From Heterodontus francisci (lineage: Eukaryota): DNA of 64,000 bases. The notes under the pieces were generated by a model. That model was not told where the DNA came from, did no database searches, and saw nothing but the letters and a program-made list of their open reading frames with translations. Below, one piece after another: positions 13,981 through 50,636 of this stretch; within the stretch, counting starts at the first letter, position 1, and every line of letters begins with the position of its first letter. The translations under genes and the position numbers were made by a program. The stretch spans positions 68,110,741-68,174,740 of the forward strand of contig NC_090394.1 of NCBI RefSeq assembly GCF_036365525.1. The letters run 5' to 3'.

Positions 13981-16900
13981 GGATCACCTTCATGAAGAAA
14001 TGGCAAATTTTTAAAAAAATCATTGATAAAAGATTCATTTATAGATTCGATGATGTTGTGCATCCAATATGGCGCGCAGTCATTATGCGATAGATCGAGC
14101 TGCTCTGTAGGTATCCAGGATGCAAGCCAGAACTATTTAAGCTGTTTTCAGGTGCAATTGAATTTCCAGGTTGAAAGGAATCCTGATGCGGGAAAAGAAA
14201 ATGCCACATTGATTCTGTGGAGGCTTTCATTTAAGATTGAAGTCAAGGCTCATTTTTGATCACCATAGGATGGACTGTTTTCAGAATCTAATCTACTGCC
14301 ATACATGATCTGGCAAGGCTTGATTTTGACACTAGATAAAAGTGGAAAAGTGTTTCTTCTCCCGACCTTGATCATCACATACCAGTCCACAGCAGCAAGC
14401 TCCAGTCTCAACATTATTTATTTAATTATTCTGGTTATTACTGCAGCTTTTGAAAAAATAATTTCACAGCAGTAATGCATGTGACAATGTCCCTGAGTCA
14501 CAGTTTTTCACATTAACATTTAACTGATGTAAAGAGACTGACATAAACCTGCTTTTGCATTTATTATTACCTAATTTACTTGGCTTGAACTAATCAGTCA
14601 TCTCTGGGATTCATTTATTTGCTTTATATGATCAACTGCATTCTGAATGACAGCAGTAAAAACTCAAACACTTGTAATGTGGTTTCCTAATTCACCCAAG
14701 AGCAGAAGTGTGCATATTAAAGAAACCATACAACTAAGTCCTGTGTCATTCACCGACACAGGACATTTTCGACATTTTTGAGTCCTGTATGTATTTCAAA
14801 CTGAATATGTTTGTCAAAAAACTCACAAATGTATTTTTAATTGGTCAATTGTCATTAACTTAGAAAACAATCAAACGTTCAAACTGTGCTTCTCTAATAT
14901 TTCATAGTTCTTCCTTTAGGCCAATAATTAAGAAGTGTCCGTGTTTTAATGCTACAGATATAAATGAGTTAATTCGAACAGCTCCAGTACTTGGTTCACA
15001 TGCAGTCCATGTAGCTCCACATTGTGATTTTTAAAAAAATATTCATTCACAGAATGTGGGCGTCGCCCAGCCCTAATTGCTCTTGAGAAGGTGGTGGTGA
15101 GCCGCCTTCTCGAACTGCTGCAGTCCATGTGGTGACAGTCCACACACAGTGCTGTTCAGAAGGGAGTACCAGGATTTTGACCCAGCGACAATGAAGGAAC
15201 AGAATATAGTTCCAAGTCAGGATGGCGTGCGACTTGGAGAGAAACTTACAGGTGGTGGTATTCCCATGTGCCTGCTGCTCTTGTTCTTCTAGGTGGTGGA
15301 AGTTACGGATTTGGAAAGTGCCTTGGCGAATTGCTGCAGTGCATCTTGTATATGGTACACACTACTGCCAATGGGCGCCGATGGTGGAGGGAGTGAATGT
15401 TTAAGGTGGTGGATGGGGTGCCGATCAAGTGAGCTGCTTTGTCCTTAATGATGTAGAGCTTCTTGAGTATTGTTGGAGTTGCACCCATCCAGGCAAGTGG
15501 AGAAATTTGGATCACACTCATGACTTGTGCTTTGTAAATGCTTTGGGGAGTCAGGAGGTGAGTTATTTGCTGTAGAATTCACAATTCTGACCTACTGTTG
15601 TAGCCACAGTGATTATGTGGCTGGTCCAGTTAAGTTTCTCGTCAATGGTGACCAGAATGTTGATAGTGGCGTTGTAGGTCAAGGGGAGAATGGCTAGATT
15701 CTATCTTGTTTGAGATGGTCCTTGCCTGGCACTTGTGTGGCACAAGCGTTACTTCCCACTTATCAGCCTACACCTGAATATTGTTCAGGTCTTGCTGAAA
15801 GCAGGCATGGGCTGTTTCAGTGTCTGAGGAGTTGCAAAAGGTACTGAACGCTGCACAATCATCAGCAAACATCCCCACTTCTGACCTTATGTTGGAGGGA
15901 AGATCATTGATGAAGCAGCTAAAGATGTTTGTGCCTAGGACCCTACCCTGAGGAACTCCTGCAGTGATGTCCTGGGGCTGAGATGATTGGCCTCCAACAA
16001 CCACAACCATCTTCCTTTGTGCTTGGTATGGCTCCAACCAGTGGATTCCCATTGACTACAATTTTGCTAGGTTGCTTTGATGCCACCCTCAGTCAAATGC
16101 TGCTTTGATGTCAAGGCATTCACTCTCAACTCACCTCTTGACTTCAGATTTTTTTGTCCATGTTTGGTCCAGGCTGTAATGAGGTTGGAGCTTGTCGGAA
16201 TCCTGGCGGAATCCAAACTGAGCAGCAGTGAGCAAGTTGTTGCTGAGTAAATGTTGCTTGACAGCACTGTTGACGACACCTTCCATCACTTTGCTGATGA
16301 TTGAGAGTAGATGGATGAGGCGGTAATTGGCCATATTGGATTTGTCCTGCTTTTTGTGGACAGGACATACCTGTGCAATATTCCACATTGTCATGTAGAT
16401 GCCAGTGTTGTAGCTGTACTGGAGCAACTTGGCTGGGGGCATGGTTAGTTCTGGAGAAAAAGTCTTCAGTGCTACAGCTGGGATGTTGCCAGGGCCCTAG
16501 CCTTTGCTGTACCCAGTGCCTTCAGCCATTTGTTGATATCATGTGGAATGAATTGAATTGGCTAGAGACTGTGATGGTAGGGACCTCAGGAAGAGGCCGA
16601 GTTGATTGAAGATGTTTGCAAATGCTTCAGCCTCATCATTTGCATTGACGTGCTGGGATCGGTCATCATTGATGATAGAGATATTTGTGGTGCCTCCTCC
16701 TCCGGTTAGTTGTTTAATAGTACACCACCATTCATGACTGGATGTGGCAGAACTACAGAACTTTGATCTGATCCATTGGTTGTGATATCGCTTAGCTCTA
16801 TCTATAGCATGCTGTTTCCGTTGTTTAGCATGCATGTAGTCCTGTGTTCTATCTTCACCAGGTTGGCACCTCATTTTTAGTTATGCCTGGTGCTGCTCCT

Positions 16901-17577
16901 GGAATGCTGTCCTACACTCCTCATTGAACCTGGGCTGGTTCCCTGGCTTGATGGTAATGGTAGAGTGTGGGATATGTGAGGCCATGAAGTTACAGATTGT
17001 GGTTGAATGGTTGAATACAATTCTGCTGCTGCTGATGGTCCACAGCACTTCATGGATGTCCAGTTTTAAGCTGCTAGATCTGTTCTGAATCTACCCCATT
17101 TAGGATGGTTGTAGTGCCATACAACATGACGGATAATGCCCTTAATGTGAAGAAGGCACATCATTTCCACAAGGACTGTGCGGTAGTCGGTCTTACCAAT
17201 ACTGTCATGGTCATGTAGGATTTTTCCACATGTTGGTTCCTCACCAATTACTGCAGGCCCAATCTGGCAGATTTGGCCAGCTCAGTCAGTAGTGGTGCTG
17301 CTGTGACACTCTTGATGATGGACATTGAAGTCCCCCAACTAGAGGACATTCTGTGCCCTTGCTATCCCCAGTGACTCTAACAAGTGGTGTTCAACATGGT
17401 TCATTAGTTGAGGAAGGGAAGTTGGTAGTAATCAGCAGGAGGTTTCCTTGCCCATGTTTGACCTGATACCGTGAGATATCATGGGGTCCAGAGTCAATGT
17501 TCAGGACTCCCAGGGGCACTCCCTCCTGACTGTATACCACAGTGCCATGACCTCTGATAGGTCTGTCCTGATGGTGG

Positions 17578-17884
17578 TATTATGTATTCATCGGTTTGCT
17601 GGATATTTAATATACCTGATTTATCTCAGATCAATGCAGAGATGACACTAGTTATAAATCAACAACTAATTTATTTACAGTATGTTTAAATATCTTAGCA
17701 CTTTCAGTATTTCATTACAATGTCTCTATCAGAGCACGGTCTCTGTTTTTACTAGAACCTTCCCGCCTGTCTCTTTAGTTTCAGTTTCAAAACACTAGGC
17801 TTAAGCAATCAAGCACAGTGAACACTGATCAGTGAACAGATTAATACAATCAAATCCAGATCAATTAACCCATTGCACACTACA
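17578..17884 (-). mobile_element. 307-bp solo LTR (Gypsy-like) inserted in the LINE endonuclease domain
   Basis: 5-bp TSD GGTGG/GGTGA (17573-17577, 17885-17889); minus strand starts TGTAGTGT; AATAAA on minus at ~17670. Confidence 0.75.
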
Positions 17885-18372
17885 GGTGAGACAGGACATA
17901 ATCAGGTATGGTGATGGAGGAGTCTGGGACATCTGCTGTAAGGTATGATTCAGTGAGTATGTCAGGCTGTTTCTTGACCAGACTGTGGGACAGTTCTATC
18001 AATTTTGGCACAAGTCCCCAGACGTAAGTGAGGAGGACTTTACAGGGTATACCTTTGTCATTTCCAGTGCCTTGGTCAGTGCTGGCTGTTCCAGCCGGTT
18101 TTATTCTTATTTGACTTTTCTGTAGCAGTTTGATATAACTGGGTGGCTTGCTAAGCCATTTCAGAAGGCAGTTAAGAGTCAACAACATTGCTATGGGCCT
18201 GGAGTCACATGTAGGTCAAACTGGGTAAGGACAGCAGATTTCCTTCCCTGAAGAACATTAGTGATCCAGATGGGTTTTTAACATTAAGCCAGTAATTTCA
18301 TGGTCATTATTGAGAATAGCTATTTATTCCAGATATATTAATTGAATTTAAATTCCCCAGCTGCCATGGTGG

Positions 18373-18446
18373 GATTTGAACTCCCATCTCTGGTGCATTA
18401 GTCCGGGCCTCTGGATTACTAACCCAGTAACATTACTACTATGCTA
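18373..18446 (-). promoter_or_regulatory. Internal RNA polymerase III promoter (A box and B box)
   Basis: A box TAGCATAGTAG (18446-18436; consensus TRGCNNARYGG) and B box GTTCAAATC (18381-18373; consensus GTTCRANNC). Confidence 0.75.
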
Positions 18447-20614
18447 CCATTAAATGCTCCTCAATTACATGCCACCAGAAAAATGCTCCCTAACTGGTAC
18501 TTTGGTGCCATACTAATACCAAAGGTAGCTAACATTGAGACACCAATGAAAAGAACTCTACATATATTTGTCAGTACCTATGAAAGCTCATGGTGACAGA
18601 CATTATCAAACAGGTACTCTACCTTGGATCTGACAGATATACTGTAAGTAGGTACCAATAGGTAACTGAAGTTTAGATATTGCATTTGATGCCAATTGAT
18701 CTACATAATTCATTGGTTTTGAAAAGACTCTGGGACAAATTCAACTCTGAAATGATCTTCCATCAATACTTGAAGGGAGCAGAGCTCACAAACAGTGGTT
18801 CTGGGTATGCTCTTGAATGGCCAGTTTTGCTGTCAATTGTAAAGATGTCAAAGCACAAATGCATACGTGGAGCTGTAGCTTGAGGAGATTCATTCTCTTC
18901 AGTTAGTTGTGATGAGTCACAAACCTGCAGGCCTTACACTCCTCACAGAGCCAGAGGCAAGTTTACAGCCACAAGACAGCAGCTGAAAGGATTTTTTTTT
19001 TTTAATTGCTACAATTTTATTGCATCATCATCAATTTTGTATTTGCTGCTGACTGCCTATTCATAGCTTTATAAAGTTCACATTTGAAGATTGTCTTTTC
19101 TGCACACTATTTGTTTCTTGGTATATTTCTGACCTATTCAGTTTTTATTGCTGTTTGACTTAAATTTTATATTTATAAATCAGGTGTAAGTGTAGTGTAG
19201 AAATTTAACAAGAATGTGTCCTAGACACATGTTTTTATGTGTTTAAAATTCTCATCTTTGTTTTCAAATCCTTCCAGGGCCTTGACTTTCTCTCCCATCC
19301 CCCTATCTCTGTAAACACCTCTAACTCTACAAACCTCGGAGATCTCTCCGATTCTGGCCTCTTGCGCATCCCCGATTTTATTCACTACACCATTGGCAGC
19401 TATGCCTTCAGCTGCCTAGGCTCTAAGCTCTGGAATTCCCTCCCTAAACTTCTCCATCTCTCTACCACTTGCTCATCCTTTAAAATACTCCTTAAAAACT
19501 ACCTCTTTGAACAAGCATTTAGTCACCTATCCTAATATTTCACCACCACCACCAACAACAACTTGCATTTATATTCATATCTGTAATGCCGTAAAATGTC
19601 TCCAAGGCACTTCACAGGAGTTTTATCAAACAAAATTTGACACCGAGCCACATAAGCAGATATTAGGTCAGATGACTAAAAGTTTCATAGAAACCATAGA
19701 AATTTACAGCTTGGAAGGAAGCCATTCAGCCCAGCGTGTCCCTCCAGCCGACAAGGAGCGATCCAGATTAATCACACCTTGCTGCGCTTGATCTGCAGCC
19801 TTGCAGGTTTAAGTGCATATCCAAGTAATTTTTAAATGTGATGAGAGTTTCTGCCTCGACCACCCTTTCAGGCAGTGAGTTCCAGTCCCCTCGAATCCCC
19901 TCTTGCCCTAAATCTACGCCTCCTGGTTATGGACCCTTCAACCAAGGGGAATAGGGTCGTCCTATCCACTCTACCTAGACCCTTCATAATTTTATACACT
20001 TCTATTAGGTCTCCCCTCAGCCTCCTTTGTTCCAAAGAAAACAGCCCTCACCTATCCAATCTATCCTCATAACAAAAATTCTCCAGTCCAGGCAACATCT
20101 TCGGAAATCTCCTCTATACCTTTTCTAGTGCAATCAGATCATGCCCATTGTGCAGTGATTAGAACTGCACGCAGTACTACAGCTGTGGCCTGACCAGTGA
20201 TTTATACAGTTCCAATATAACTTTCCTGCTCCTGTATTCTGTGCCACTGCTAATAACCCATACACCTTCTTGACCACCTTATCTACCTGTCCAGCTATCT
20301 TCATGGATCTGTGAACATGCACTCCAAGGTCCCTCTGTTCCGCTATACTTCTCAGTATCCTTTCAATCATTGTGTGTTCCATTGCCTGGTTAGCTTTCTC
20401 TAAATGCATTACCTCACACTGAATAGGCCTTACTCTTTCATTAGTTATCCTCTTGCTCTATGTATTTATAAAACATCTTTAGGCTTTCCTTGATTTTACT
20501 TGCCATTATGTTTTCATACCTTCTCTTTGTTTTTCTTATTTCCTTTTTAATGTTGCGTGTACACCTTTTATACACGTCTAGGTTTTCTGCAGTATTGAGC
20601 TCTCAGTATCTGTC

Positions 20615-21070: not shown

Positions 21071-22595
21071 AAGGCGTTTGATAAGGTTCCCCATGGTAGG
21101 CCCATTCAGAAAGTAAGGAGGCATGGGATACAGGGAAAGTTGGCTGTCTTGATACAAAATTGGCTGGCCCATAGAAGACAGAGGGTGGTAGTAGATGGAA
21201 AGTATTCAGCCTGGAGCTCGGTGACCAGTGGTGTTCCATAGGGATCTGTTCTGGGACCTCTGCTCTTTGTGATTTTTATAAATGACTTGGATGAGGAAGT
21301 GGAAGGCTGGGTTAGCAAGTTTGCCGATGACACGAAGGTTGCTGGAGTTGTGGATAGTGTGGAAGGCTGTTGTAGGTTGCAACGGGACATTGACAGGATG
21401 CAGAGCTGGGCTGAGAAGTGGCAGATGGTGTTCAACCTGGAAAAGTGTGAAGTGATTCATTTTGGAAGGTCGAATTTGAATGCAGAATACAGGCTTAAAG
21501 ACAGGATACTTGGTAGTGTGGAGGAACAGAGGGATCTTGGGGTCCATGTCCATAGATCGCTCAAAGTTGCCACCCAAGTTGATAGGGTTGTTAAGAAGGC
21601 GTATGGTGTGTTGGCTTTCATTAACAGGGGGATTGAGTTTAAGAGCCGCGAGGTTATGCTGCAGCTCTATAAAGCCCTGGTTAGATCACACTTGGAATAC
21701 TGTGTTCAGTTCTGGTCGCGTCATTATAGGAAGGATGTGGAAGCTTTAGAGAGGGTGCAGAGGAGATTTACCAGGATGCTGCCTGGACTGGAGGGCATGT
21801 CTTATGAAGAAAGGTTGAGGGAGCTAGGGCTTTTCTCATTGGAGCGAAGAAGGATGAGAGGTGACTTAATAGAGGGGTACAAGATGATGAGAGGCATAGA
21901 TAGAGTGGATAGCCAGAGACTTTTTCCCAGAGCGGAAAGGGCTATCACCAGGGGGCATAATTTTAAGGTGATTGGAGGAAGGTCAGAGGTAGGTTCTTTA
22001 CACAGAGAGTGGTGGGTGCATGGAATGCAACGCGACATGAAATCGTGTGACATTGATCACAAGTCGTGGGAGTCAGTTGCCAGCATTCGCCAGAGCTGGC
22101 GGGCAGCCATAAAGACAGGGCTAAATTGTGGCGAGTCGAAGAGACTTAGTAGTTGGCAGGAAAAAAGACAGAGGCGCAAGGGGAGAGCCAACTGTGCAAC
22201 AGCCCCAACAAACAAATTTCTCTGCAGCACCTGTGGAAGAGCCTGTCACTCCAGAATTGGCCTTTATAGCCACTCCAGGCGCTGCTTCACAAACCACTGA
22301 CCACCTCCAGGCGCGTATCCATTGTCTCTCGAGATAAGGAGGCCCAAAAGAGGAGGAAGGTCAGAGGTAGGTTCTTTACACAGAGAGTGGTGGGTGCATG
22401 GAATGCACTGCCAGCGGTGGTAGTAGAAGCAGATACATTAGGGACATTTAAGCAACTCTTGGATAGGTACATGGATGATAGTAGAATGAAGGGTATGTAG
22501 GTAGTTTGATCTTAGAGTAGGTTAAAGGTTCGGCGCAACATCGTGGGCCGAAGGGCCTGTACTGTGCTGTACTGTTCTATGTTCTATGTTCTATG
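21071..22595 (+). mobile_element. Young 5'-truncated CR1 LINE (RT to 3' end) containing an RTE insertion
   Basis: KAFDKVPH, SGVP*GS, FINDL, KFADD, HLEYCVQFW; (GTTCTAT)n tail. Confidence 0.92.
22030..22351 (+). mobile_element. RTE LINE 3' end flanked by 56-bp direct repeats
   Basis: C-terminal CSTCGRAC..LYSHSRRC zinc finger, same family as the copies at 29011-30206 and 33482-34477; repeats at 21974-22029 and 22352-22407. Confidence 0.92.
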
Positions 22596-41132: not shown

Positions 41133-41439
41133 TCAAATTCCTTCCAAACCCGTGACCTCTACCAACTAGAAGGACAAGGGCAGCAAATGTATGGGAACAC
41201 CACCACCTGCAAGTTCCCCTCCAAGTCACACACCATCCTGACTTGGAACTATATCGCCGTTCCTTCACTGTCACTGGATCAAAATCCTGGAACTCCCTTC
41301 CTCACAGCACTGTGGGTGTACCTACCCCAAATGGACTGCAGCGGTTCAAGAAGGCAGCTCACCACCACCTTCTCAAGGGCAATTAGGGATGGGCAATAAA
41401 TGCCAGCGACGCCCACATCCCATGAATGAATAAAAAAAA
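41133..41439 (+). mobile_element. 3' end of the tRNA-headed CR1-group LINE family
   Basis: Homologous to 15040-15320; ends CAAGGGCAATTAGGGATGGGCAATAAATG..CCCATGAATGAATA(A)n. Confidence 0.85.
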
Positions 41440-44212: not shown

Positions 44213-44424
44213 TAAAAACCCATCTGGTTCACTAATGTCCTTTAAGGAAGGAAATCAGCCATCCTTACCTGGTCTGGCCTACATATGACTCCAGACCCAC
44301 AGCAATGTGGTTGACTCTTAAAATGCCCTCTGAAATGGGACAGCAAGCCACTCATTTCAAGGGCAATGAGGGATGGGCAATAAATGCTGGTCTAGCTAGA
44401 GATGCCCACATCCCACAAAAAAAA
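44213..44424 (+). mobile_element. 5'-truncated SINE sharing body and tail with the LINE at 15028-18450
   Basis: Body matches 18135-18280 (minus) and is joined directly to the tail CAAGGGCAAT..GCCCACATCCCA. Confidence 0.85.
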
Positions 44425-49546: not shown

Positions 49547-49910
49547 TTTTAAAATTCTTTCATGGGATGTGGGCATCACTGACAAGGCCAGCATTTGTTG
49601 CCCATCCCTAATTACCCTTGATAACTGAGTGGCTTACGAGGCCATTTCAACCACATGTAGGCCAGACCAGGTAAGGATGGCAGATTTCCTTCCTGAAAGG
49701 ACATTAGTGAACTGGATGGGTTTTTACAACAATTGATAATATTTTCATGGCACTATTACTGAGACTAGCTTTCAATTCCAGATTTTTTATTAATTGAATT
49801 TATTAGTTAATTAAATCCCACCAGCTGCCATGTTGGGATTTGAACCTATGTCCCCAGAGCATTAGCCTGGGCCTTTAGCTTACTAGTTCAGTGACATTAC
49901 CAAAACACCC
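49547..49910 (-). mobile_element. Near full-length tRNA-derived SINE made of the head/body and tail of the LINE at 15028-18450
   Basis: B box GGTTCAAATCCC; head matches 18200-18440; direct junction to the LINE 3' tail at ~49620. Confidence 0.85.
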
Positions 49911-50636
49911 CCGCTTCTCCCAGCAATGTTGCTCACTGCTGATCTTGAAGGAAGCTACCCACAAAAATCTAGTGATCTCCGTGGCACAGACATTCCCTTT
50001 CCCAATAGCAGTTTAAATCTGGCGCCAAGTCCAGGGGATCTCCAGGCATCCAGTAGCAGTGATGTCATCAAGCAGGGTAAGCAGCCAATCACATTGAAGT
50101 ATTCCCACAAGCAGCAAACCAGGAGATAAAAGCCACTGAATCCCTTTCATTTTTAATTTTCAAATTTTACAGAGAGCAAAATAAATGATTGAGACATACA
50201 TATGGGGTTAGGTTAGAAGCTAAAATATCATAACTTTAAAAATAAATTCAAAATATATGGATTTTTTTATCATAATGGAGAAATTTGACATTCCACAAAT
50301 ATAAAATTATTCTTTCAGGGCTAGTGAGGCTGTTTAGCAGTAATTATGAAGTTAGTACGCTGTTAAAAACCCAGTTACACATCATTCAACAAGGTGTAAC
50401 TTTTTCAAGGGTTTTTATAGCGTGACTAAGAGAATAAAAGTGGAAGTTCTCATCAGTTCAGTGTTTTTTAATTGATTGCAGACTAGGGGGGATCTCGACA
50501 TATGCACTCTCTGGAGCAGCATAGAATCACTTACAGCAGCTTCTGGATTTCTGCATTTAAATGCGTATGTTTCAGAGGAGTAATGATTGTCAATGCTGAC
50601 AGTTTGACCATTACTTCTACTGCAAAATCTGGGCTA
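49911..50636. mobile_element. Probable Harbinger-type non-autonomous DNA element, one end visible
   Basis: Ends in GCAAAATCTGGGC|TA, resembling the GGGC..ATTTT TIR class; left TIR not found. Confidence 0.35.

Follow-up and report, generated by a model that had tools for sequence, protein, structure and literature searches.

A family-wide tRNA-like head and scarce T-runs in an elasmobranch Zenon LINE suggest possible transcription by RNA polymerase III

By a working rule, long interspersed nuclear elements (LINEs) owe their transcripts to RNA polymerase II (Pol II) and short interspersed nuclear elements (SINEs) to RNA polymerase III (Pol III), whose weak processivity limits SINEs to 100–700 bp (PMC10886601). 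Zenon LINEs, all lacking ORF1 and ending in a poly-A tail, were described in 2026 from five elasmobranchs, coelacanth and hagfish, and the elasmobranch ones are so far absent from repeat repositories (PMC13343379). We analysed a 64,000-nucleotide stretch of Heterodontus francisci DNA (the window; NC_090394.1, positions 68,110,741 to 68,174,740) that contains a decayed full-length copy of an elasmobranch Zenon LINE. The original prediction, made from the letters of the window, saw in it a candidate for a single-ORF (open reading frame) LINE that is driven by Pol III from a tRNA-derived head and is poor in terminators on its sense strand. Following the family through the genome (6.0 Gb searched), we find that the head belongs to the LINE, that T-runs are avoided and that the frame lacks an early AUG. 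We propose, with a probability of roughly 0.58, that Pol III transcribes this autonomous LINE over its whole length and that its translation dispenses with both a cap and a standard in-frame AUG. The family is known, its architecture is apparently undescribed and the mechanism is one that we infer.

The closest described systems each share part of this architecture. The elasmobranch Zenons (CarCar, RhiTyp, ScyCan, HypSab and SquAca_Zenon) are the same family, with one APE-RT ORF, no ORF1, poly-A and full-size consensus lengths of 3.24–3.31 kb, compared with ~3.3 kb here (PMC13343379). Lepidopteran Zenon likewise has one ORF and poly-A, and its short derivative Persaeus is built from the LINE's 5' and 3' ends, but Persaeus has no tRNA homology and no Pol III promoter (PMC6740152). 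tRNA-derived SINEs, including the bipartite Bov-tA (PMC5786205) and Zenon-tailed bivalve SINEs (PMC11481361), have a tRNA head with A and B boxes, a body and a LINE-type tail; Bov-tA and the bivalve SINEs are short and non-coding and the head sits on the SINE alone, whereas here the coding LINE carries it too. R2 too is autonomous with a single ORF; its RNA is not made by Pol II as a capped transcript, and cap-independent translation is proposed for it, but it is co-transcribed with rRNA, released by an HDV-like ribozyme and site-specific (PMC12203849). The Zenon LINE carries a promoter-like head of its own, encodes an APE endonuclease and inserts at scattered places. Cassandra, Helenus and Ajax (TRIMp3) are retroelements with a Pol III promoter captured from a small-RNA gene, although they are non-coding long terminal repeat (LTR) elements of 311–1,263 bp (PMC10886601). 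The known shark SINEs, SacSINE1 and HE1, combine a Deu or V domain with a tail of the L2 or CR1 type; SacSINE1, compared by description, has an L2 tail, unlike the Zenon tail here. A search for a link to MetaSINEs gave no motif match in two supplementary files.

Several lines of evidence identify the family as Zenon. Two motifs from this genome's copies match the CarCar, RhiTyp and ScyCan consensus rows, and the first 400 nt of the elasmobranch rows, compared by eye and with species taken from row names, are near-identical to this genome's family (PMC13343379). There is one 975-codon frame with APE and RT, the APE motif lies 437 nt from the 5' end, and the 3' ends (66 of them) carry poly-A. 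The original prediction was right that APE and RT follow each other without ORF1. Its premise that CR1-group LINEs have an ORF1 fails for this clade, every Zenon element being without one; the single ORF is a known Zenon trait and not peculiar to this element. Canonical CR1s are recognized by an esterase ORF1 or by clustering with ORF1-bearing CR1s, and the family shows neither: on an RT tree of 37 rows, with no named Zenon reference, it falls outside this genome's canonical CR1 clade (99/98), among unnamed single-ORF relatives. A control CR1 copy (L123) does have an upstream frame with a GDS motif, presumably the esterase. Proteins named for two sharks match part of the LINE query, at 88% and 75% identity. 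A shark protein, P0001, is annotated as an aldo-keto reductase and contains ~210 LINE residues at 88% identity; this piece is either a gene-model artefact or an exonised fragment.

The head opens all seven of the seven elasmobranch rows (five species, sharks and a ray), complete or gapped. Over the same 400 nt, again by eye, two hagfish rows and the coelacanth row begin with unrelated, T-rich sequence and have no head (PMC13343379), and the lepidopteran Zenon 5' end is likewise without one (PMC6740152). Since the single ORF is common to Zenons and the head occurs only in elasmobranch rows, the head looks like an elasmobranch addition, ray included. The covered text of PMC13343379 does not mention tRNA, promoter or polymerase, nor its supplement tRNA, and we did not find the head, the T-run loss, the missing AUG or the partner SINE described there for elasmobranch Zenons. 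Our literature search returned no tRNA-headed or Pol III-made autonomous LINE, and four leader and tail motifs had no match in the main text of any paper in the literature searched; Repbase, Dfam and SINEBase lay outside that search, and a prior description there is possible.

The fusion of head and LINE is genuine and family-wide. A query of head plus APE gave 12,337 genome candidates, and among 40 scored copies the head was joined to APE in 39 of 39 non-self cases; their upstream flanks are unrelated, except for two similar pairs distant from the junction. Because this sample is biased to the head, two further samples were picked without it. An RT protein search (374,133 candidates, 150 among the matches listed) supplied the 40 copies with the longest open frames: 20 begin at an identical first base, two end in the head, three in the leader and 15 in the ORF, and none extends further. 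An exact 28-mer directly before APE has 5,849 matches, and the first 40 by position were taken. Seventeen start within 12 nt of +1, three in the head and 20 in the leader by the main alignment, five of these 20 retaining the head upstream across an indel; no alternative shared 5' end appeared in this sample of 40. The young LINE junction has 2,991 exact genome matches. The original prediction had allowed that the head might be found on this copy only; instead it is attached at a constant junction in the whole family and in the published consensus of five elasmobranch species.

The A and B boxes that it read on the minus strand of a tRNA-like head are also there, and, CpG sites aside, both vary less among copies than the head between them (Table 1). 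The leader varies about as much as the ORF (3.8% versus 3.4%). In 11 of 19 full-length young copies ARAGORN recognizes the head as a tRNA; on the window it found no tRNA, and the window copy scores 16 bits (E 3.1) against Rfam tRNA. The LINE thus carries the tRNA head with A and B boxes that marks tRNA-derived SINEs (SINE2), but at 3.3 kb and with a conserved ORF it is not short and non-coding, as its 390-nt derivative is. Target-site duplications, which the original prediction would place outside the head, did not emerge: the best match averages 7.4 nt in 17 copies against 7.1 nt in mismatched controls, so that no long duplication stands above controls, and 3–4 nt duplications were matched by eye in a few copies. 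Among 25 related metagenome loci a tRNA-like piece occurs in one, L158. We rejected it as a second tRNA-headed LINE because the piece (8–81) finishes with T6 and a broken LINE lies 1.3 kb further on, an arrangement due to chance; the piece is probably a short SINE of that metagenome host.

Runs of four or more T (T4+) terminate Pol III transcription, and interrupted T-runs can do so too. The column-wise majority sequence of 40 young copies (divergence 3.5%) is free of sense T4+ over 3.3 kb, alongside 14 A4+ (tail excluded), 8 G4+ and 13 C4+ runs. Sense T4+ is likewise missing from the older-group majority (divergence 10.9%, and 5.6% relative to the young majority), C4+ numbering 11–13 across both majorities. 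Natural young copies have T4+ at 0.16 per kb, and the single shared variant that creates T4 (position 1145, 18%) falls at a CpG. Under a positional-frequency null the absence of T4+ has P=0.025. The ORF has 4 T3+ runs against 13.0 ± 2.5 expected under synonymous-codon shuffling, with 0 of 2,000 shuffles giving so few, while A, G and C runs match expectation; windows with four T in five number 1 against 8.9 expected. Where T is a synonymous choice it is used in 155/469 cases as a lone T, in 46/230 when it makes TT and in 0/39 when it makes TTT (p=3e-6). The last figure is 0/39 and 0/40 in two subfamily majorities, and the same analysis of A is null.

Controls set the family apart. The CR1 control uses a TTT-making T in 26/64 cases and shows no avoidance, this genome's canonical CR1 has 7–11 T4+ per ORF in 20/20 copies, and five head-less Zenon-like relatives with long ORFs have 10–24 T4+ runs. 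Phe makes up 1.8% of the protein; all 104 homologues of similar length have more (minimum 2.3%, median 4.3%). The T-run signal is strand-specific and strongest in the headed family, and it is not wholly new to the headed lineage. The original prediction had counted runs in the window copy. Its two sense T4+ runs (15836-39 and 16457-61), 11 antisense runs (LTR and A-tail left out) and five in CR1 are all present, although it overlooked a T7 at 15033-39, within the decayed tail. Both sense runs are mutations private to the window copy, the family having no runs there. As for the depletion itself, a majority without T4 and TTT avoidance beyond controls bear it out, while the T4 count taken alone is non-significant against codon shuffling.

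The family frame, read stop to stop, reaches its first Met at residue 285, beyond the entire APE domain. Since no in-frame AUG lies upstream of it, the start predicted from the frame is non-standard: translation would begin either at a codon other than AUG or at an upstream AUG followed by a -1 shift. The original prediction opened the ORF at the ATG at 18188, which we reject as start codon. It reaches APE in the window copy only because 14 nt were lost between two 7-nt direct repeats near 18049. Across the genome the form with the deletion is matched exactly 11 times, the intact form 5,849 times. The deletion is present in 12/40 copies picked by likeness to the window copy and in 0/25 RT-picked ones; with only 11 matches, a hidden master subfamily of the deleted form was likewise rejected. 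Older copies (L031-L069) show many short deletions, of which the 14-nt one is the commonest, and some others recur in independent copies. A 1,073-codon frame in L080 (1176-4397, minus strand) was rejected as an intact element: a 5'-truncated LINE copy lies in frame within a canonical CR1 endonuclease region, giving a chance frame with two APE domains.

Between subfamilies the APE-RT ORF has 93 synonymous and 37 replacement codon differences, which shows purifying selection on it; this does not extend to the 43 codons that precede APE (4 synonymous, 11 replacement). The young subfamily and 6/7 published elasmobranch rows retain an out-of-frame AUG at family position 354. It is lost in 35/40 sequences of the older-group alignment (ATA in most of the older subfamily), where the majority has an AUG at 270 open in the same frame. 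The A-rich spacer upstream of position 354 differs in length between species (counted by eye). Four close head-less relatives (L140-L143) have a Met within 20 codons of the frame start (first Met at residue 4-20), before APE; insect-like relatives have an AUG before APE and T4 runs. Rfam gave no ribozyme family match, the R2-type HDV-like ribozyme included, for the window leader and two young copies, although a divergent ribozyme is possible. The best -1 slippery candidate, C-GGA-AAC, was rejected as imperfect and altered in one published consensus.

The LINE has a short partner. This SINE, 390 nt long, consists of family positions 1-321 fused directly to the last 75 nt, with two copies in the window and 2,824 exact junction matches in the genome. 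Fifteen of 20 copies fetched start at the head, and 7 of these 15 carry 26-28 of the 32-33 bases diagnostic of young LINEs; the joint also occurs in RNA-guessed contigs of four studies. Because the SINE shares head, leader and young-LINE diagnostic bases, the two 5' ends are one module, exchanged or re-derived. AATAAA lies ~45 nt upstream of the A-tail. The A-tails often read TTTTTAAAAA, with T plus A about 10 (window 15028-15039; 66 3' ends), and among the analysed sequences, tails included, there are 37 instances of this word and 2 of its mirror. It is probably not a built-in terminator: T4+ is present in 15/66 ends, and there is no age trend (rho -0.10, p 0.5). The constant sum and the missing trend make later A-to-T conversion more likely, and the tails look like conversion to a palindrome after insertion.

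We can outline how such an element would arise and work. An ancestor of sharks and rays would have exchanged its Zenon 5' end for a SINE-type head via template switching. TFIIIC would bind the A and B boxes, and Pol III would run from +1 through 3.3 kb to a T-run in the flanking DNA; selection would then have purged terminators from master copies. Ribosomes would enter on the leader and start by one of several routes. We marginally favour initiation at a codon other than AUG, within the A-rich spacer or after it; an out-of-frame start at AUG 354 or 270 with a -1 shift before the first APE motif is possible but doubtful, and any other route is improbable. Starting from the A-tail, the protein would copy its own RNA through target-primed reverse transcription, and it would mobilise the SINE as well. 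It is an even bet that this is the first autonomous protein-coding Pol III retrotransposon, with an uncapped mRNA of 3.3 kb, kept clear of terminators from before the shark/ray split onwards, and a new AUG-free entry on the leader.

A number of observations weigh against Pol III transcription and AUG-free translation. The T4+ count in the ORF, 0 against 2.1 expected in the synonymous-codon shuffle, is not significant by itself (P=0.085). As TT is rare in its own right, a shuffle that keeps dinucleotides accounts for a large share of the signal, leaving P=0.16 for T4 and, for T3, 0.07 in the young and 0.02 in the old majority; residual TTTs number 8 and 6. TTT is avoided too, though less strongly, in four of the six head-less Zenon-like relatives (p between 8e-5 and 0.024), so part of the bias predates the head. 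The majority sequence has no built-in terminator, and a 3.3-kb transcript far exceeds the 100-700 bp range of SINEs (PMC10886601). No internal ribosome entry site (IRES), ribozyme or good slippery site was found; the leader consensus fold is weak (-13.7 kcal/mol, covariation -0.58, from 18 rows of which one is the wrong region), and we therefore claim neither IRES nor ribozyme. The family is abundant in RNA-guessed contigs, but these show no start, strand or level. The original prediction thus survives in the head junction and the TTT avoidance, while its AUG is an artefact of the window copy and its T-avoidance is partly shared with head-less relatives.

The most serious rival, which we nevertheless regard as unlikely, is Pol II transcription from an internal leader promoter, the arrangement of ordinary LINEs, the head being a captured relic kept for RNA structure and the T-scarcity a Zenon-wide bias against U-rich RNA combined with low T. 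The milder TTT avoidance of the relatives and the weak T4 statistics fit it, as do a leader no more variable than the ORF and the AATAAA ahead of the A-tail. Lepidopteran Zenon also yields short internally deleted elements without a Pol III promoter (PMC6740152), so the partner SINE could be such an element. However, the boxes are better preserved than the rest of the head and visible in sharks and a ray, and avoidance is complete in the family (0/39) but partial in relatives that keep 10-24 T4 runs. Two to four AATAAA within the first 360 nt would suit a Pol II unit poorly, and a capped mRNA would have no reason to be without the in-frame AUG that the closest relatives, L140-L143, have before APE.

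Pol III might instead make only the 3.3-kb template, while the protein would be translated from capped RNAs that Pol II produces by reading through copies within host transcription units. Such a split would account jointly for the head, the T-run loss and the want of a visible IRES; 39% of Zenon-like repeats are intronic in whale shark, and the abundance in RNA-guessed contigs is in keeping with it. We think it improbable, because purifying selection on the ORF is easiest to understand if the protein acts on its own RNA and because the missing AUG stays unexplained. That a SINE merely landed beside a 5'-truncated LINE at the window locus might be suspected from the many SINE copies with an identical head. 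The exact junction matches, the head-independent samples and the junction shared by other species refute this, and we put its probability at next to nil. Pol III transcription of the whole LINE remains our preferred reading.

The window copy differs from the young-copy majority by 15.8%, and its features are collected in Table 1. Its +1 is an extrapolation, as the alignment begins at 18448, family position 9. The original prediction set aside a nested LTR within it, and indeed this 308-bp insert recurs elsewhere in same-strand pairs, 3-5 kb apart, as LTRs do. The repeat has 2,291 genome candidates, with paired copies on contigs C9 and C6; used as query in a phage search it had no match. Elsewhere in the window, the CR1 RT frame at 21242-22300 (plus strand) continues without a frame change into a C-terminal piece unrelated to it, which closes with a Cys/His motif. 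This piece resembles an RTE-type LINE end and is probably a nested insertion.

Table 1. Coordinates in the window of the Zenon LINE copy, its parts and related copies
Feature	Position	Strand	Remark
Decayed full-length elasmobranch Zenon LINE, whole element	15028..18456	-	family length ~3.3 kb
tRNA-like head	18362..18456	-	5' end of element 10 nt upstream of A box
A box	18436..18446	-	non-CpG variation 3.3% across copies
B box	18372..18382	-	non-CpG variation 2.3%, versus 5.6% in head between boxes
Leader ('body'), common to LINE and partner SINE up to family position 321	18137..18361	-	
ATG of the original prediction, family position 270	18186..18188	-	out of ORF frame in intact family
Site of out-of-frame AUG, family position 354	18102..18104	-	ATA in window copy
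14-nt deletion point between short direct repeats	18048..18049	-	brings ATG 18188 in frame
Broken APE-RT reading frame	15073..18035	-	many stops, frameshifts and deletions in window copy
APE-RT landmarks	first APE motif 18035, GDFN 17335, SDH 17191, RT from 16496, FADD 15869, stop 15075	-	
Nested solo-LTR-like repeat, later insertion	17577..17884	.	4-nt duplication (CACC) each side
3' tail common to SINE, with A-tail remnant	15028..15086	-	part of tail deleted in window copy
Partner SINE, 5'-truncated copy	44213..44415	+	leader fused directly to tail
Second SINE-form copy	49554..49914	-	head, leader, tail
LINE copy, 5'-truncated	41142..41435	+	3' end only

If Pol III transcription is borne out, a very abundant vertebrate LINE that codes for protein from a Pol III promoter would break the rule that divides LINEs and SINEs by polymerase. 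It would offer for study a naturally occurring Pol III mRNA several kilobases long and a new kind of start that needs neither cap nor AUG, and it would mean that parts of a SINE flow back into a LINE. Even under Pol II, it is unusual for a LINE and a SINE to have head, leader and tail in common.

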